Source of the DNA: a virus
Virus record (IMG/VR): IMGVR_UViG_3300042319_002356
Span: 26,768-90,767 of that record
DNA: 64,000 bases
Direction: 5' to 3' (one strand)
The position numbers were made by a program, and so were the translations under genes. Under the pieces are notes generated by a model that was given only the letters and a program-made list of their open reading frames with translations, ran no database searches and was not told the origin of the DNA. How positions within the stretch are numbered: position 1 is the first letter of the stretch; each line of letters starts with the position of its first letter. Of this stretch, positions 25,874 through 64,000 are shown in pieces.

Positions 25874-27169
25874 ATGAACAAGACAATTATCATAACAGAA
25901 CACCAAAGTCTGAGTTTAATTAACGAAGAAGACAATGTTGAATATATTGAATTGACTCCTGATGAGTATAAAAGATACTTAAAGATGGTATCTTACGATG
26001 GTAGATTATTGTATAACATACCTAAATTTAGAGGAAAAAAAATAATTATTAATAAACAATTAGATTTATCAGGACTACCTGTGAAAGATTTGGGTCCGAT
26101 TGTTATTAATGGAGGGTTAGATATATCAAGAACCAAAATTTCTTCCTTAGATAATGTTGATATTAGAAGTCGTGGGTGGATTGCAGATTGGGACACTCCA
26201 ATGAGAAAGATGAGAGAAAGACGAGAATTTTTGGCAAAAGTTGCTGAACAACAATCAAAGAGAGAAGATGGTGAATGGGATGAAAATTCTGAATTGGATA
26301 TGGTTGGGTTATGTGCAAATGCTTTATTTAAGTATTTGGTGCGGTATGAACAATTTGAACCTAAAGAACCTGGTGATGATGAAAAATTAGAACAATATAG
26401 AAATAGAATTGAGGAGATTGAAAGTATTGAGGGATATGATGAAAATGATGAATTGGTTTCTGAAGTTGAAACTTTAACGGAAGAAATTGAAGAGATTGAA
26501 AAAAGAATTGATGTTTATAATCTAAATTATATTGGTAAACATTATAAATTATTAGAATTTTCTGTATTACACCAAGATAATGAGAGTCATGAGAGATATG
26601 CGGTTGGAGATTATGATGACACTAATGCGACCGCATTATCCAGAGCTGAAGATTACATTGATGAGGTTGGAATTGAGAATATGGACAAAAATTTTGTCGG
26701 TGATTATATTGATGAGGAAGAGTTTAGAGATTACTTCAGAGAGGGTGAAGAGGAGTATGTTAGAGACAATATAGAATATATTTTTGATGAAGATGATTTT
26801 GAATATAGTGAAGAAGTGCAAGAGAGAATAGATGTAATTGAAGCGAGATTAGAAGATTCTGAAATAGATTCAGATGAAGAAGATGAATTAAGAGAAGAAC
26901 TTGATGAATTAAAAGATAGTGAAAAGACAGTTTCTGAAGATTTAATTGAAAGTAAAGTTGAAGAAATGTTAAATGATAAGGCTGATGATATGATGGCGAC
27001 ATTGATAGATTACGGGATTGAATTTGACCAATTTGTGAATAAAGCTGATTTGGCACAAGGTATGGTTGATGCTGACGGATTCGGTCATACAATATCATCT
27101 TACGATGGAAATGAACATGAGGTTGAATTCCAAGGAGAAACTTACTATATTTTCCAAACAGAAGGATAA
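25874..27169 (+). CDS. Highly acidic hypothetical protein with a short LRR-like segment
   Basis: Starts MNKTIIITE; LDLSGLPVKDL and LDISRTKISSL. Confidence 0.7.
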   Translation: MNKTIIITEHQSLSLINEEDNVEYIELTPDEYKRYLKMVSYDGRLLYNIPKFRGKKIIINKQLDLSGLPVKDLGPIVINGGLDISRTKISSLDNVDIRSRGWIADWDTPMRKMRERREFLAKVAEQQSKREDGEWDENSELDMVGLCANALFKYLVRYEQFEPKEPGDDEKLEQYRNRIEEIESIEGYDENDELVSEVETLTEEIEEIEKRIDVYNLNYIGKHYKLLEFSVLHQDNESHERYAVGDYDDTNATALSRAEDYIDEVGIENMDKNFVGDYIDEEEFRDYFREGEEEYVRDNIEYIFDEDDFEYSEEVQERIDVIEARLEDSEIDSDEEDELREELDELKDSEKTVSEDLIESKVEEMLNDKADDMMATLIDYGIEFDQFVNKADLAQGMVDADGFGHTISSYDGNEHEVEFQGETYYIFQTEG

Positions 27170-35357: not shown

Positions 35358-35368
35358 TTTGTAAAGAA

Positions 35369-35900
35369 GACCCCACAATACCGTTTATCTGCGGTTGGAC
35401 AGTGTGAACCTGGCTTGAAGGCTCCAAGGCTATGGGGGAGGCTACACAGAACGTGAAATACATATAGCACTACTTAATCGGTGTTAATTGGTTTGGGGAA
35501 GTTCAACCAAGTATGATAGGGAACAATGAATTAGATACCCTCGTTATGGATTAAAAGGGTTAGGGGCTTTAAGTAGTCGTGTCGTAATCCACAAGTCGTA
35601 AGAACACTAGACAATCTTACGATATACACTCTTCTTCCGAGTGAGGTTAACCAAGTAACTATGGTGACAGGGCGAAGATGTCTTGAGGGTAACACTGAGC
35701 GCCTTGACCGAGAAGCTTATGACTAATTTGATTAAGTGAGTAGGGACAGGACGGAGTGTGAGAGTATAGGTCCTCGGTGGACGGTTACTATGGTCCCACT
35801 CTCTTGGGGCATATCCGAGGAAATACTACTGATGGTAAAATACTACTAACCAAAGGTCGTCTCGTGAATTACCCACGGACAGGGAAGACGACCTTTAACT
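35369..35900 (+). ncRNA. Large GC-enriched structured non-coding region of unknown class
   Basis: No ORF of 60 aa or more; helices ACTACTTAA/TTAAGTAGT, TATAC(A)CTCT/AGAGTATA, CCTCGG/CCGAGG and AAAGGTCGTCT/AGACGACCTTT. Confidence 0.6.
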
Positions 35901-36140
35901 TTTTAAAAAGAATAAAACAATGGCGGCAAAATCAAAACATTATTTGGACGTATTGAGTTGGGTTAAATCGGTTATCAAATCAATTGACCATCCGTTACAA
36001 GACGCAACTGCAAAAAGACTCATCGGAAATTATTTTGAAATGTATGGAGATAAGTTTACACTCAAGGAGAAAATTCAGATTGGGATGGATTTGAGGATGG
36101 AACTTGACGCTGTGGTATATAAAAAAACAAAACAATCAAT

Positions 36141-36941: not shown

Positions 36942-37415
36942 ATGGAAAAGACTTTACTCTCATACGAAGGAAATATTACAACTGAATATATTGACAGTGT
37001 GGTTGAGTATGTTAATACATTGGATGAAAAACCGGCATTAATTAGAAAGATTTGTTTTTTAATTGTTGAAGTTTTACAAAATGTATTCCACCATTCAGAT
37101 AAGAATGAACATGGAAATACTTTCGCATATTTCCAATTAATTAAGGATGATACTTATATAATAAAAACCGGAAATTTAATCTCAAAAGAAAAAACCGAAG
37201 GGTTAGAAAAAAGATTAGAATGTGTCGTGAGTTCAACTGAGGATGAAATTAAAGAAAAAATATTCAATAATTTAAATAAGGAAGGATTTAGTGAAAAGGG
37301 TGGTGCTGGAATTGGACTTCTTTCAATCAGGAAGAAAGTGAATGATGGAATGACATATGATATTGAGATTTTTAAAGGTGATTATAATATGATTCATTTT
37401 GAAATTAGAATATGA
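36942..37415 (+). CDS. SiaB-family (GHKL-type) protein kinase
   Basis: VEVLQNVFHH, TGNLI and GGAGIGL motifs. Confidence 0.75.
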   Translation: MEKTLLSYEGNITTEYIDSVVEYVNTLDEKPALIRKICFLIVEVLQNVFHHSDKNEHGNTFAYFQLIKDDTYIIKTGNLISKEKTEGLEKRLECVVSSTEDEIKEKIFNNLNKEGFSEKGGAGIGLLSIRKKVNDGMTYDIEIFKGDYNMIHFEIRI

Positions 37416-37948
37416 AAAAAGATACTGGAAATATTAGAGATATAATGAAGTTTTTCATTGCTCATCAGATAAAGAAAGGAGAAATACCCAAATTAACACC
37501 TGTCATTTATCACAACATAGGGGTTAGTAAAAATTCATTAAACGATATCACAAAGGTTCTACCGGTGTTTAGAGAAATTTTGGGTGATGATTATATACAA
37601 AAATTCATATCAAAATTTGAAAACAAACCAATTAATGTTAATGATTATGATGATAACATAGGTGTTGGAGGTTATGATTTCATATTTAAATTTGATATTT
37701 ATAAAATGTATAATTATAATGATTTCTATCTTGTAGAACTCAATATTAATATTGAGCCAGGTGGTGAGGTTACACTTATGACTGACGGTGAAACATATAC
37801 ATTTGAAGAAATGGATAGGACAAACCACGAGGCATGGCAAGAAGTACAACAAGAAATAATTGAATTAATATTTGACATACTTCGTTACAAACTCACAGAT
37901 TACACCGGACTCCAAGACTTTTCAATAGAAAAGTTGAAGTATTTTTAA
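37412..37948 (+). CDS. Hypothetical protein
   Basis: 178 aa ORF. Confidence 0.65.
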   Translation: MKKDTGNIRDIMKFFIAHQIKKGEIPKLTPVIYHNIGVSKNSLNDITKVLPVFREILGDDYIQKFISKFENKPINVNDYDDNIGVGGYDFIFKFDIYKMYNYNDFYLVELNINIEPGGEVTLMTDGETYTFEEMDRTNHEAWQEVQQEIIELIFDILRYKLTDYTGLQDFSIEKLKYF

Positions 37949-37955
37949 AAAAAAC

Positions 37956-37986
37956 TTGACATAACTGAAAAATAGCAGTACTTTTG
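37956..37986 (+). promoter_or_regulatory. Bacteroidota-type promoter of the leader/tRNA operon
   Basis: TTGACA-17 nt-TACTTTTG, the same spacing as at 46739, 63319, 63421 and 63530. Confidence 0.8.
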
Positions 37987-38015
37987 TAAAACAATTGATA
38001 TTTAATAAGAAAACA

Positions 38016-38129
38016 ATGAAACAGAACTCAACACATAACGTAAGTAATCTCCCGATGAACGTGGGCCAAGCGTGGTTTACGATTAAGGGGCAGGATTGCC
38101 GTAAGTTCAGGGTTCTTAATAAGATGTAA
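38016..38129 (+). CDS. Putative attenuator leader peptide (37 aa, MKQNSTHNVSNLPMNVGQAWFTIKGQDCRKFRVLNKM)
   Basis: Translated manually; A-rich start context; 29 different codons; overlaps the antiterminator arm. Confidence 0.8.
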   Translation: MKQNSTHNVSNLPMNVGQAWFTIKGQDCRKFRVLNKM

Positions 38130-38187
38130 TCGTATCATCAAATATATAAAGAAGGACCCTGAACTATAAAGTTCGGGGTTTTTTTTT
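38104..38187 (+). promoter_or_regulatory. Mutually exclusive antiterminator/terminator (attenuator)
   Basis: 38104-38117 AGTTCAGGGTTCTT pairs over 14 bp with 38152-38165; alternatively 38156-38165 pairs with 38170-38179 in a 10 bp hairpin followed by a U tract. Confidence 0.85.
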
Positions 38188-38201
38188 GGTGTTACAAAAA
38201 G

Positions 38202-38212
38202 GTTCTTTGACA
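38202..38212 (+). promoter_or_regulatory. rrn boxA-like element
   Basis: GTTCTTTGACA just before the first tRNA; similar elements at 63587 and 55534. Confidence 0.55.
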
Positions 38213-38229
38213 TATTGGGAAAAATAAAT

Positions 38230-38308
38230 GACCTCATAGCTCAGTTGGTTTTTAGAGCGCCATACTTTTATAATATGGGAGTCCCGAGTTCAAATCTCGG
38301 TGGGGTCA
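38230..38308 (+). tRNA. tRNA, probably Lys(TTT)-derived, with a 9-nt anticodon loop
   Basis: Full cloverleaf; CCATA-CTTTTATAA-TATGG anticodon arm. Confidence 0.7.
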
Positions 38309-38309
38309 C

Positions 38310-38451
38310 AATTGGTAGTAAAAATGCGTAGGATGGAAGACGTGGAGAGACGAGTCGCAAGGGTACACACTTAGAACTGCTCTATTATGGTGTGTGAAGC
38401 GTCGTAGTGATACGAATCCCAGATTCCTGATAAATCCATCCACTACCAATT
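38310..38451 (+). ncRNA. Unknown structured RNA between tRNAs
   Basis: Closing helices AATTGGTAGT/ACTACCAATT and GGATGGA/TCCATCC, plus internal stems. Confidence 0.6.
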
Positions 38452-38458
38452 TTTATAT

Positions 38459-38531
38459 GCGTCTGTAGCTCAATTGGTAGAGTACTGGTCTCCAAAACCA
38501 GGTGTTAGAGGTTCGAGTCCTCTCAGGCGTG
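38459..38531 (+). tRNA. tRNA-Trp(CCA)
   Basis: Cloverleaf; CT-CCA-AA loop. Confidence 0.93.
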
Positions 38532-38537
38532 CAACAA

Positions 38538-38610
38538 GCCTCCTTAGCTCAGTTGGTAGAGCACTTGTTTTGTAAACAAGATGTCGTTGGTTCGAATCCG
38601 ACAGGAGGCT
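38538..38610 (+). tRNA. tRNA-Thr(TGT)
   Basis: Cloverleaf; TT-TGT-AA loop. Confidence 0.93.
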
Positions 38611-38617
38611 CAAACAT

Positions 38618-38692
38618 TCTCACGTAGCTCAGGTGGTTTAGAGCATTTGACTGATATTCAAAAGGTCGTTGGTTCGAGTCCAACCGTGAGAA
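38618..38692 (+). tRNA. tRNA-Ile(GAT)
   Basis: Cloverleaf; CT-GAT-AT loop. Confidence 0.9.
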
Positions 38693-38700
38693 CTTAATTT

Positions 38701-38775
38701 CTAGGTGTCGGGCAGATGGTTATACCCGCATGGTTTGGGACCATGATATCGTAGGTTCGAATCCTACCACTTAGA
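38701..38775 (+). tRNA. tRNA-Pro(TGG)
   Basis: Cloverleaf; C1-G72; TT-TGG-GA loop. Confidence 0.9.
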
Positions 38776-38782
38776 CAACAAT

Positions 38783-38855
38783 GGGCTGTTGGTATAGACG
38801 GTTAACACACTTGCTTTGCACGCATGAGTCCCCGGTTCGAGTCCGGGATGGTCCA
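38783..38855 (+). tRNA. tRNA-Ala(TGC)
   Basis: G3:U70 pair; TT-TGC-AC loop. Confidence 0.9.
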
Positions 38856-38867
38856 CTAATCGGAAGT

Positions 38868-38935
38868 ACGTAAAAAATGGGTGGAACTTGTGAAAAATGA
38901 GAGTAAAACCACTCTTAACGTAAAAAATGGGTGGA
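38868..38935 (+). repeat. 18-nt direct repeat with a 50-nt period
   Basis: ACGTAAAAAATGGGTGGA at 38868 and 38918. Confidence 0.8.
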
Positions 38936-38954
38936 GAATATTTGAAAGAAATAT

Positions 38955-39030
38955 GGGGTGATAGCACAGGTGGTCAGTTCGCGTCGGTCTGAAAAACCGA
39001 AGATGTGTGGTTCAACTCCCACTCACCCCA
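38955..39030 (+). tRNA. tRNA-Phe(GAA)
   Basis: CT-GAA-AA loop; bulged D and T stems. Confidence 0.8.
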
Positions 39031-39110
39031 CGAGGTCCTGAATTAACAGGACAACCCCACCTCCGATATGGCAGTCAGTCCGTTAATCTGACGAAGTGGG
39101 TTTTTTATAA

Positions 39111-39186
39111 GCGGGTGTTGCATAGTGGCCGATTGCGTCTGCCTTCCAAGCAGAAATCACCGTGGGTTCGAATCCCACTACCCGCT
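39111..39186 (+). tRNA. tRNA-Gly(TCC)
   Basis: GCGGGTG acceptor, CT-TCC-AA loop, U73. Confidence 0.92.
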
Positions 39187-39266
39187 CCTAGTGTCTCGGT
39201 AAGCTCTGACGAAAGTCAACTACGAGGTCTCGGTGGACAGAAGGCCTCTGATTCCACCCACTTTTT

Positions 39267-39339
39267 GGCTCCATGGTTGAATGGCAACAATGCCGGCTTG
39301 TCACGCCGTGTGGTACGGGTTCGAATCCCGTTGGAGCCG
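39267..39339 (+). tRNA. tRNA-Asp(GTC)
   Basis: TT-GTC-AC loop, G73. Confidence 0.9.
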
Positions 39340-39400
39340 CAAAAAGAGGAATAACTTGTGTAGGTGCCTCAGGGGACTGCAGCCCCACTACACTCCATTT

Positions 39401-39471
39401 TGTCCCTTCATCTAATGGCAGGATATCAGATTTTGATTCTGAGTATGTTGGTTCGAATCCAGCAGGGACAA
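39401..39471 (+). tRNA. tRNA-Gln(TTG)
   Basis: U1-A72; TT-TTG-AT loop. Confidence 0.88.
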
Positions 39472-39507
39472 CTTTTTTAATTCAAATTTTTTTATTATAT
39501 TTGCTCT

Positions 39508-40119
39508 ATGAACTCAACTAATTTAAAATTAAAATACTCAATTGGGAAAATTGATGAAATTAAAAATCTTGATGGTGACACTAAAGAAAGGTTGTTACTT
39601 GAGTTATTGGGTGAGATGTCTAAAGATAAGAACTCTTCTACATTTAGAGAGGGTGTTACTCTTGGGGTATTAGGTAAAAACCAAAGTGTTACTAAATTGG
39701 GTTATGATTCTGATGATGAACCAATTGAGGTTAAACCTAAGAATATTTCATCAGACTCTAATAAAAAATTTGATGGGTCTGGTAATTTTAGTGATTTTAC
39801 TTGGGCGAGACATAAAAAATATAAGAATGACAACGTCAAAATGATGGTGTCAGGATTTTTAGACGGTAAAGTTTTATTTGTTATTAGTTTTGATTACAAT
39901 TCAAATGATTTTGTAACTGAGATTGAAAGACAATTAACTAAACATTTACCTGATGGTGATGTTAGCAGTAGATATGTTAGAAGTGTTAAATTTAGTTATA
40001 AGCATTTTAACACTTCTGATAGTTTAAAAATTGAATATTTGTCTCCTGAGTTTAAAACATTTGAGAACAAATTCACTAAACCTTTTTATTCCTTTATACT
40101 TAAATATGAATCTAATTAA
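39508..40119 (+). CDS. Putative PD-(D/E)xK restriction endonuclease
   Basis: GYD...IEVK motif; overlaps the downstream MTase gene. Confidence 0.55.
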   Translation: MNSTNLKLKYSIGKIDEIKNLDGDTKERLLLELLGEMSKDKNSSTFREGVTLGVLGKNQSVTKLGYDSDDEPIEVKPKNISSDSNKKFDGSGNFSDFTWARHKKYKNDNVKMMVSGFLDGKVLFVISFDYNSNDFVTEIERQLTKHLPDGDVSSRYVRSVKFSYKHFNTSDSLKIEYLSPEFKTFENKFTKPFYSFILKYESN

Positions 40120-46607: not shown

Positions 46608-46814
46608 CAAACTATTAGTAAACTTTAGTACCCGTACAGGTCACGTAGGGTTAAATTAGATACAATTTCGTGCCACATTTGTGGGAACTGGAAGTAGAAT
46701 GCTAAAGAACTAATGGTTAAAAATAAATAAGATTTTTCTTGACACGGGAGTATTTATATCTTACCTTTGTCAAACAATTCGGAAACGACTGAATTGAAAA
46801 ACAAAATATTATAA

Positions 46815-49575: not shown

Positions 49576-50682
49576 ATGAAGAAGATAGTTAAATTAACTG
49601 AATCAGATTTGGTTAAGATTGTTAAAAGAGTTATAAACGAACAATCAGAACAATCAAAAAAATTATATACATCTTGGGCTAATAAAAAAAGTGGAAATCC
49701 TGAAATGGCAATGTCCATTATGGATGACGTGTTAAAATTCCAAAGGTCATTACCTATGAGGGATTTTGCAAAATATTCTTCATATGAACAGTTAAAGAAA
49801 GATTTGGATAAGGTTATTGGTGACAGGAAAGAAAAAGATGCTACAAAGGTATATGAGGATAAGGACTTGTTAATTATTCAGGCCAATACTTGGGAGGCAA
49901 GTTGTAAGTATGGTGCGGGGACCAAGTGGTGCACTGCCGGTAGAGACACACCTGTGAATTGGGAAAGATATAATAGAACAGGAACTGAGTTCATTTGGAT
50001 TTTTAAGAATAAACCAAATACTGACCCAGGTTATAAGTATTCACATCATATTAAACCCGATGATGGACAAGATTGGTGTGACGCATTAAACAACTGTAGG
50101 GTTGAATTAAGCGATAAATCATACCCAAAGCAACACCCAAAGTATGACGAGATTATTGAAAAGTTAAAATCAATCCATAATGAAAGAAATATTGTGGACC
50201 CAGATAGAGAAAGGAAACTCATTGATAAATTAATTTATACTTGGATTGATAACCATCAGGATGAACTTGAGGCAATGTATTTAAAAGATTTTAATCCTAA
50301 TAAACTTTGGAAGAGTATTTGGAGTGAAACTTTAATGGATGGTGGATGGGAGTATGATTATGAAGATGTTGACCCTGATGAACTTGATAATATCCTTGGT
50401 GACCTTTCCAGAAATATCCCACCGTATTATGGTAATGGTGATATTGAAGTAAGTAATGTTGATTTCTTCTATGATGTTAAATCAGGTATCGGCAGTTATA
50501 TGCATAAGAAACAGATGGCGTTTACTTCTGAGAATTTGGAACGAATTATTAATACTATAGATGTAGATATGATAGCTACAAATAATTTTTTTGATAGTGT
50601 GGATGAAGAAATTGCAGAACGGATGAAAGAAACGGCTTACGAAATGATAAATGATGAACTCAGAGATAGATTGGGTATTTAA
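49576..50682 (+). CDS. Hypothetical protein (WCTA domain) with an LTESDL leader
   Basis: Starts MKKIVKLTESDLVKIVKRVINEQ; ASCKYGAGTKWCTA. Confidence 0.75.
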   Translation: MKKIVKLTESDLVKIVKRVINEQSEQSKKLYTSWANKKSGNPEMAMSIMDDVLKFQRSLPMRDFAKYSSYEQLKKDLDKVIGDRKEKDATKVYEDKDLLIIQANTWEASCKYGAGTKWCTAGRDTPVNWERYNRTGTEFIWIFKNKPNTDPGYKYSHHIKPDDGQDWCDALNNCRVELSDKSYPKQHPKYDEIIEKLKSIHNERNIVDPDRERKLIDKLIYTWIDNHQDELEAMYLKDFNPNKLWKSIWSETLMDGGWEYDYEDVDPDELDNILGDLSRNIPPYYGNGDIEVSNVDFFYDVKSGIGSYMHKKQMAFTSENLERIINTIDVDMIATNNFFDSVDEEIAERMKETAYEMINDELRDRLGI

Positions 50683-63318: not shown

Positions 63319-63560
63319 TTGACACTACCAAATATTTGCCGTAAGTTTGTAAAAGATTTGACACTCATAGGGAATGAAAGATACTCGGTAGTCAAAAAGA
63401 AAAAAAACTTTACAAAAAGTTTGACAAATTGAAAAAGATGTTGTAAGTTTGTAAAGAATTTGAGATTAAGGTTCACAAAGTGGTAAAACGATGAAAGTTT
63501 CCAAATCTCAAAAAAAGTTAACAAATAACTTGACAAATAGAAATAAATGTCGTAAATTTG
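63319..63560 (+). promoter_or_regulatory. Three tandem host-type promoters
   Basis: TTGACA-17 nt-TAA(G/A)TTTG at 63319, 63421 and 63530. Confidence 0.8.
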
Positions 63561-63599
63561 TAAAACAATTCGGAAATGTCCGATTCGTTCTTTGAAAAA

Positions 63600-64000
63600 A
63601 TAGATTATCCATTCAGTGAAAGTAATCCTTCGGGATGATGATAACTGATAAACGATAATGGGCCGTGTATGGTCCTTAAATAAACTACGAAAGTAGGATA
63701 AAGTGGTCTCCCCCGTGTTGAGGAGATTGCGGTTTGAAACACCGAAAGGTGAATTGAACTCAAGTACACAAGTGGGATATCACAACACCGTAAGTACCGA
63801 GGATAACTTCGTAGGGAAAATGGTGGGGTGACCTGGCAAAGTAGATTGTCAGGTTGAACTCGGAAGAGTAATAAGAATAACCCATAGGAACTCTGTAAGA
63901 AATGTGACCATCCAGTTACACTATTGCGGGTCCCAATATGATAGAGGACTTAAAACCGAAAGGTAAGATAGAGAACGAGTGGTGTCGCTACTATCCCTAA
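63600..64000 (+). ncRNA. Large structured RNA continuing beyond the window
   Basis: No ORF; many GNRA/UUCG hairpins (ATCC-TTCG-GGAT, CTAC-GAAA-GTAG, CACC-GAAA-GGTG). Confidence 0.65.

Follow-up and report, generated by a model that had tools for sequence, protein, structure and literature searches.

The DNA considered here, positions 26,768 to 90,767 of IMG/VR virus record IMGVR_UViG_3300042319_002356, makes up the final 64 kb of a viral contig of 90.8 kb (G+C 33%), and this whole stretch of 64,000 nucleotides is referred to as the window. On its + strand, downstream of a gene for a 178-amino-acid (aa) protein, a promoter, a short leader open reading frame (ORF), an intrinsic terminator, a boxA-like motif and an array of ten tRNA genes follow one another between positions 37956 and 39472. 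The source is a giant lake-water phage of Bacteroidota. An earlier note, made from the letters of the window alone, had read this region as an attenuator in which a leader peptide senses the tRNAs encoded downstream. The comparative analysis described below supports the attenuator interpretation, in that the parts are conserved and the comparative tests are mainly favourable.

Transcription of the element is predicted to start from the promoter at 37956–37986, which consists of TTGACA (37956–37961, -33/-35) and TACTTTTG (37979–37986), the latter representing the Bacteroidota -7 box TAnnTTTG. Both boxes are invariant among 22 relatives while the spacer between them is variable, and the same promoter type precedes many + strand genes of the contig. 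The 5' untranslated leader that follows (37992–38015) is A/U-rich, ~24 nt long from the putative start site, and has no Shine-Dalgarno sequence, as is usual in Bacteroidota. The leader ORF at 38016–38129 comprises 37 codons and a TAA stop codon. Its codons 17–27 read G-Q-A-W-F-T-I-K-G-Q-D, Pro is encoded by codon 13, and the ORF as a whole uses 18 amino acids, missing only Glu and Tyr. When 37-aa windows of the phage's ORFs are taken as the chance expectation, an 11-residue run within a 10-member set occurs in 1.6% of them, and a run with at least nine distinct members in 0 of 4293. The promoter (found in more than 20 relatives), the ORF, the codon run, the position of Pro and the absence of Glu and Tyr are all as the earlier note had given them.

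Leader elements of this kind were found in ~44 viral or metagenome contigs, in more than 20 variants and always directly upstream of a tRNA array; three pattern scans yielded 35 IMG/VR contigs with the element. Three Bacillaceae matches from the pattern scan of genome contigs were rejected as chance hits on terminators. Loci for comparison were obtained through relatives of the upstream 178-aa protein, whose close homologues, P0001–P0003 (85–95% and 66% identical), lie outside the locus comparison. Across these loci the leader retains 85–99% nucleotide identity, while the flanking proteins are only 27–66% identical. Each variant comprises, in this order, a promoter, a 37-codon ORF, a terminator, the boxA-like motif GGTTCTTTGACATATTGG and a first tRNA (Asn, Lys, Trp or Pro). 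Four loci lack the leader (L003, L004, L007 and L008), and behind the protein gene they have either tRNA-Gln alone or no tRNA at all. On these comparative grounds, the leader element is not a chance feature.

A diverged homologue, here called type 2 to distinguish it from the type-1 leader of the window, was found in L044 and five further contigs, with an ORF of 36–37 codons and with subgroups that are ~73–77% identical. Its promoter is of the same type, a long hairpin again covers the ORF and a small one the stop codon, and a 15-bp antiterminator is built from different bases. In G011, G012, G013 and G014 there is also a second leader unit, composed of a promoter, a 22- to 24-codon ORF, a terminator and a boxA-like motif, and the 3' end of this second leader again copies the 3' arm of its own terminator. 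No leader was found before the second tRNA cluster (Ser-Leu-His-Arg) of the type-1 relatives, where tRNA-like RNAs lie instead. Promoter, ORF, antiterminator and terminator are kept in more than 20 type-1 variants, and type 2 rebuilds the long hairpin, the antiterminator and the terminator from different sequence.

An attenuator of this kind is expected to contain two mutually exclusive structures. The intrinsic terminator and the arm that it shares with the alternative structure occupy 38152–38187, with the shared arm at 38152–38165, the terminator stem formed by 38156–38165 and 38170–38179, and a T-run extending to 38187. The stem is 10 bp long and G+C-rich and is followed by nine T; RNA folding gives -19.6 kcal/mol, and although a simple terminator scanner does not list it, the fold is unambiguous. 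The stem changes among type-1 leaders in ways that preserve wobble pairs and shows compensatory double changes in type 2. Within the ORF, codons 30–34 (38104–38117) form the 5' arm of the antiterminator and are a near copy of the terminator's 3' arm, with an exact 11-nt copy in most variants. Pairing of 38104–38117 with 38152–38165 extends over 14 bp (-21.7 kcal/mol, z -5.2) and excludes the terminator. Both the terminator at 38156–38187 and the 14-bp pairing with its ORF-side arm had been predicted earlier, and both were confirmed, with the coordinates of the ORF-side arm being right. Among 22 type-1 variants, the antiterminator has a standard pair in 96.7% of cells, as opposed to at most 64% in shifted registers, and in L086 the antiterminator arm and the terminator's 3' arm share the same C-to-T change at matching positions.

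Two further hairpins are present. A long imperfect hairpin at 38023–38116 spans codons 3–34, contains an inner hairpin at 38061–38082 and is the minimum-free-energy fold (z -5.2); the whole leader folds far better than shuffled sequences (z -5.2), with codons 3–5 joined to 38110–38116. The long hairpin would be an anti-antiterminator and possibly a pause structure. The other is a small conserved hairpin that encloses the stop codon (38123–38139), with four invariant pairs, also found in type 2. An RNAalifold consensus of the 22 variants keeps the long hairpin, the stop-codon hairpin and the terminator, and three pairs of the long hairpin show compensatory double changes. Compensatory stem changes, which had been proposed as a check in related phages, are therefore present both in the long hairpin (type 1) and in the terminator (type 2).

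Translation of the leader is expected to leave traces of selection on its reading frame. The ORF is open in 26 of 26 variants of the two types, and none of 54 substitution events among 15 distinct type-1 ORFs makes a stop codon or removes the start codon (P ~0.005). Of these events, 21 are synonymous, compared with 13 expected under transition matching; read in either of the alternative frames, they yield 9 and 13. The ORF of type 2 has just two indels, separate from each other and both of 3 nt, while those outside it are of 1, 2 and 5 nt; in the type-1 comparison, indels of 1–2 nt within the transcript are confined to the 5' untranslated leader. The ORF is 36–37 codons long in both types. The peptide sequence itself is not conserved between types, and the substitutions give a dN/dS near 1; an open frame of fixed length, rather than a protein, is under selection. 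These results support the view that the ORF behaves as a translated one. Four metatranscriptome runs contain low-depth contigs over the leader, although contigs of this sort can show neither ribosomes nor transcript ends and do not exclude DNA, and one RNA-library contig that spans 38027–38225, across the terminator, proves nothing about read-through.

Beyond the terminator, the boxA-like motif GGTTCTTTGACATATTGG is located at 38201–38218, between the terminator and the first tRNA, and is a candidate NusB/S10 loading site. It is invariant in all type-1 relatives, is also found in type 2 and matches 8 of 10 positions of published consensuses, which are those of other organisms (the host's own boxA may differ): UGCUCUUUAACA in E. 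coli and AUGAUCUUUGAAA in B. subtilis (PMC13753749). A related GTTCTTTGAAA is found after a promoter and hairpin and before other untranslated RNA units (GOLLD, tRNA) in G002 and at 63530–63600 of the window. Like the boxA of rrn operons, the motif shares the UCUUUGA/ACA core and opens a long operon of untranslated RNAs; unlike it, the motif lies downstream of an attenuator terminator, and its binding of NusB is putative. By analogy, it may serve as the loading site of an rrn-type antitermination complex. The possibility that TTTGACATATTGG is a second promoter was rejected, as it has no -7 box and its start would fall inside a tRNA, and it is read as boxA-like instead.

The gated array at 38230–39472 contains ten tRNA genes, Lys (UUU, with a 9-nt loop), Trp, Thr, Ile, Pro, Ala, Phe, Gly, Asp and Gln, separated by structured spacers. 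ARAGORN calls nine of them, and the Rfam tRNA model adds the gene at 38230–38308 (53.8 bits). This gene is a homologue of tRNA-Lys(UUU) in which a 2-nt insertion (TA) produces a 9-nt anticodon loop, whereas the loop is of the normal 7 nt in the corresponding genes of L074, L031, L032 and L093. Gene decay, a role as a decoy or resistance to a nuclease could each explain this form. The earlier count of ten thus holds when both programs are used, with the qualification that the loop of the Lys-like member is aberrant. The syntenic order (Asn)-Lys-Trp-Thr-Ile-...-Phe-Gly-Asp-Gln is kept in relatives. tRNA-Glu (47009) and tRNA-Tyr (48084), the two identities missing from the leader, are preceded by promoters of their own at 46739 and 48042, as had been proposed; outside the array, the tRNAs of the window (Cys, Met-Glu, Tyr, Met) lie directly behind promoters and have no leader.

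If the leader monitors the tRNAs that it controls, its codon alphabet is expected to follow the content of the array. Among 29 amino-acid replacement events in the leaders, 24 lead to a residue whose tRNA is in the same phage's array, compared with 11.7 expected from codon neighbours (P 2e-6) or 14.7 from proteome frequencies (P 2e-4). In the control frames, 16 of 33 and 11 of 31 replacements fall in the phage's own array (Fisher P 2e-4). The array of L086 consists of Trp, Ile, Phe, Gly, Asp and Gln, and all eight replacements in its leader fall in this set (P 7e-4). In G011, the alphabet of the first leader (type 2) is exactly the 16 amino acids of a contiguous array of 17 tRNAs, with P values of 3e-4 by nucleotide shuffling and ~2e-6 by composition. 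Missing from that leader are Ala, Asp, Glu and Gly, and their tRNAs are located 2.7–9 kb further on; the only amino acids found in the second leader of G011 and not in the first are these same four. Within the second leader (L147, from 18454), which stands ahead of tRNAs for Leu, Gly, Ala, Glu, Asp and Met, codons in series read L-L-G-A-D-L-E-A-G-D; a run like it occurs in 0 of 22,297 24-aa windows of the phage proteome. Between types, Asp and Gly are confined to type-1 leaders and arrays, and Tyr to type-2 leaders and arrays. At the family level, the leader alphabet is thus linked to tRNA content. The correspondence between leader and operon content that had been proposed in the earlier note therefore holds at the scale of substitutions and of the family, and fails at the fine scale. 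The perfect 11-codon run is limited to the window and a few relatives, the family consensus having Ser at codon 19, and among the 26 codons that precede the antiterminator arm, 7 are for amino acids that have no tRNA in the array. We also rejected covariation of codon 19 (Ala) with tRNA-Ala, as this codon lies in a tetraloop and some arrays with tRNA-Ala accompany a Ser codon.

The position of a ribosome on the leader is expected to decide which structure can form. Folding was performed on a transcript ending at 38168, i.e. before the terminator's 3' arm is made, with a ribosome footprint of 30 nt. The antiterminator then forms with a probability of 0.98 when the A-site is at codons 2–25, 0.82 at codon 26, 0.62 at codon 27 and 0–0.12 at codons 28–37. 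Because the probability falls from codon 26 on, the run of codons 17–27 ends where a stall stops being productive. The element is thus probably a ribosome-mediated (leader-peptide) transcription attenuator that gates the main tRNA array and senses decoding speed. Host RNA polymerase would start at 37956–37986, and a ribosome would load on the A-rich leader and translate the 37-codon ORF. If the ribosome runs smoothly into codons 28–37 while the polymerase makes 38152–38187, arm 38104–38117 would be covered, the terminator would form, and transcription would stop before the tRNAs. If it lags at any of codons 2 to ~27 for want of a charged tRNA, the arm would be free to pair with 38152–38165, the terminator would be blocked, and the polymerase would read on. 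It would then meet the boxA-like motif, probably become termination-resistant and transcribe the ten tRNAs. Since the leader is largely written in amino acids that the operon supplies and in codons that are rare for the phage, the output of the array should speed leader translation and close the gate again, giving negative feedback. As for the physiological trigger, host anticodon nucleases are a purely speculative candidate. A broader proposal, to which we give slightly less than even odds, is that large phages run a homeostat of tRNA supply: every tRNA unit would have a leader of its own as its gate, the codons of this leader would list the tRNAs of the unit, a shortage of any one tRNA would open exactly the operon that replaces it, and the product would close the gate.

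Several observations weigh against this interpretation. When ribosome footprints are placed on the complete leader transcript, equilibrium folding gives the terminator in every case, and a switch would have to be kinetic; in the proposed check by footprint folding, masking of the arm depends on ribosome position in the partial transcript, and no switch appears in the full one. The 7-bp base of the long hairpin lies behind a ribosome stalled at codons 17–27 and could re-close. There are no tandem repeats of one codon in the leader, so any single stall would be short. The third codon positions of the leader have a G+C content of 0.59, compared with 0.26 in phage genes and beyond every 37-codon gene window, and its codons are rarer than those in any gene window of the phage; such rare G/C-ending codons fit slow decoding, but constraint from RNA structure explains them equally well. 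Judged from its loop, the tRNA-Lys of the window may not decode, at odds with the idea as first written. With respect to the alphabet, type-1 leaders are near-constant while arrays change: where the Lys, Thr, Ile, Gly or Asp tRNA has been lost from the array, the leader still contains the corresponding codons, and L060 and L085 carry tRNA-Ala yet have Ser at codon 19. The amino acids of type-1 leaders also include Ser, His, Leu, Cys and Arg, whose tRNAs are confined to later clusters, and Val, whose tRNA belongs to some arrays but not to others. When type-1 and type-2 leaders are scored on each other's arrays, a hand count gives 48 matches for own and 45 for crossed arrays. Lastly, the statistics given above come from few independent lineages, with much of the signal carried by L086 and G011, and majority states were taken as ancestral.

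The near-constant type-1 leaders, whatever their arrays contain, and the near-equal own and crossed scores also fit a generic sensor of translation capacity, in which any slowing of the ribosome would open the gate and the match between alphabet and array would be a by-product of amino-acid diversity and shared ancestry. Leaders use 16–18 of the 20 amino acids and so cover most sets, at least 18 being reached in 5% of windows, and the whiB7 upstream ORF (uORF) of mycobacteria provides a precedent for a response to many kinds of loss. Such a sensor does not account for the frame-specific bias of replacements towards the phage's own array, nor for the exact 16/16 alphabet in G011 and the complementary second leader that precedes the complementary tRNAs, and we consider it unlikely, though it deserves to be kept in mind.

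Two other explanations dispense with sensing by translation. The very high nucleotide conservation, which includes third codon positions, the compensatory pairs of the long hairpin and the poor conservation of the peptide between types would suit an attenuator made of RNA only, where a protein, a small ligand or an RNA acting on the long hairpin decides and the ORF is incidental. An incidental ORF would not be expected to stay open through 54 events, to show a synonymous excess in its frame alone, to accept in-frame indels only and to keep a length of 36–37 codons across types that differ by more than 40%; its start context is A-rich and unstructured, and no Rfam riboswitch or T-box match was found at E up to 1 (for the T-box model, within 37400–40000). 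This explanation is thus quite improbable. It is also conceivable that promoter, leader and terminator make up a separate small gene, whose product would be a small RNA of some stability or a protein of 37 aa; the pairing would then have no regulatory role, and the array would be transcribed by leak-through or from another start. A promoter followed by a highly structured 195-nt RNA and a strong terminator does resemble a small-RNA gene, and terminated attenuator RNAs can act in trans, as an excerpt of an account of rnTrpL indicates. Against this, no promoter lies between the terminator and the first tRNA, where the conserved motif lacks a -7 box and would place a start inside the tRNA. In addition, the arm duplication is kept among relatives and was built anew both in type 2 and in the second leader, the element was never found without an array, and a dN/dS near 1 is not that of a conserved protein. 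We therefore regard a separate small gene as highly improbable, and a ribosome-mediated attenuator remains the preferred interpretation.

Leader-peptide attenuation is classically known from enterobacterial operons for amino-acid biosynthesis. Some of these leaders are multivalent, as in thr (Thr, Ile) and ilvGMEDA (Leu, Val, Ile), and others respond to a single amino acid (trp, his, leu, pheA); amino-acid leader families have Rfam entries RF00506, RF00513, RF00514 and RF00512. The phage element resembles them in that a short ORF lies close to the promoter and overlaps, with its 3' end, the antiterminator arm, in that antiterminator and intrinsic terminator have one arm in common and, as proposed here, in read-through in response to a stalled ribosome. 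Enterobacterial leaders contain tandem runs of codons for one to three amino acids and control biosynthetic enzymes, whereas the phage-encoded leader spreads 16–18 amino acids over single codons and controls tRNA genes. Against the Rfam 15 leader families, the best match was Thr_leader (RF00506) with 23.2 bits (gathering score 55, E 0.22), and it covered the terminator part only. T-box RNAs bind one uncharged tRNA directly, with no ribosome involved, and the pheM leader of pheST contains Phe codons only and controls a synthetase. Both share with the phage element the sensing of tRNA charging or availability and a choice between terminator and antiterminator on genes of the translation apparatus; they differ from it by direct tRNA binding (T-box) or by Phe-only control of a synthetase (pheM).

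Two further systems are closer in function. The whiB7 uORF has a mixed, Ala-enriched composition, and stalling on it is believed to bring about antitermination; losses of many amino-acid pathways, tRNAs and synthetases activate it, and the uORF coding sequence determines what is sensed (PMC10274678). The phage leader is likewise a mixed-composition uORF, with proposed stall-linked antitermination, but whiB7 is cellular, Ala-enriched and controls a drug-tolerance transcription factor, and there is no sequence relation between the two. In Anabaena, the trn operon is a silent array of 26 tRNAs that is induced under translational stress; its promoter contains direct repeats bound by the repressor TrcR, and the text of the paper on this control contains neither 'attenuat' nor 'leader' (PMC8421152, PMC10272220). 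Like the phage array as proposed here, it is an accessory tRNA array that is switched on when translation is impaired; its control lies at the promoter, and that of the phage would act after transcription start.

The spacers of the array contain structures of their own. Between tRNA-Lys and tRNA-Trp, a structured element of ~150 nt (38311–38458) has no Rfam match, recurs directly after the upstream protein gene at the leaderless loci L003 and L007, and reaches an RNA-library contig depth of 62–178 in run X15. The spacer between tRNA-Ala and tRNA-Phe (38857–38954) is filled by about three copies of the repeat AAAAATGGGTGGA, which recurs beside tRNA-Gln in L008 (350–440). A conserved G+C-rich hairpin, GTGTAGG...CCACTACAC, precedes tRNA-Gln at 39341–39400 and is also found in L003 (680–730), L004 (2203–2270) and L008 (455–515), kept where the rest of the array is lost; in L004 it stands alone, before a T-run. 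In L093 (340–1050; 231640–232350 of G002), an apparent 5' half of tRNA-Pro, extending through the TGG anticodon, lies right after the leader and is separated by ~600 nt from an intact tRNA-Pro(TGG), and could belong to an interrupted or partly duplicated gene.

Other features of the window and its relatives concern the phage at large. The DNA runs that contain the stretch are lake-water metagenomes, the + strand intergenic regions carry TTG-N19-TAnnTTTG, a Bacteroidota promoter type, and the window's ClpP shares 65% identity with the ClpP of an uncultured phage of 635 kb (LR745206). Neither tRNAs nor synteny were found in the clpP neighbourhood of LR745206, the nearest GenBank relative, and a DNA search of deposited phages gave matches limited to tRNA genes, with no nucleotide relatives. 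Related contigs reach 294 kb, and one of them (G002) is rated complete. Relatives of the phage encode a tmRNA (L051 2090–2488, Rfam 112.5 bits; near 49741 in G002, ARAGORN), GOLLD RNA and at least 25 tRNAs. At the end of the window (63530–64000), a structured RNA of higher G+C content continues past the contig end; upstream of it lie, in order, a promoter, a short hairpin and a boxA-like GTTCTTTGAAAAA. This RNA is 86–92% identical to the stretch directly 5' of Rfam GOLLD (RF02032) matches in L051, L068, L069 and L081, and is therefore the 5' domain of a GOLLD RNA that the end of the contig truncates. At 35358–35919, no Rfam match to GOLLD reaches the gathering score. Three tandem promoters of the type TTGACA...TAAGTTTGTAAA lie at 63319, 63421 and 63530, spaced by ~100 nt, and those at 63319 and 63421 are each followed by a short non-coding stretch.

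The regulation of phage tRNA genes is, to our knowledge, hardly known. Why phages carry such genes has been debated for 50 years, the two main ideas being codon compensation and escape from tRNA-cleaving defences, according to an excerpt of one account (PMC10264068). In our literature searches, no publication was found that describes attenuation by a leader peptide, in the style of the trp operon, for tRNA genes. If the proposed attenuator is correct, leader-peptide attenuation would reach from amino-acid metabolism to tRNA genes, and the element, with ~270 nt and many natural variants, would provide a small sensor of natural origin that owes its specificity simply to its codons. In a homeostat, the shortage could arise from a mismatch in codon usage, host shut-off or cleavage by host anticodon nucleases, and the complementary leader pairs in G011, G012, G013 and G014 would be two independent channels. 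These phages would then measure decoding capacity and supply tRNAs on demand.

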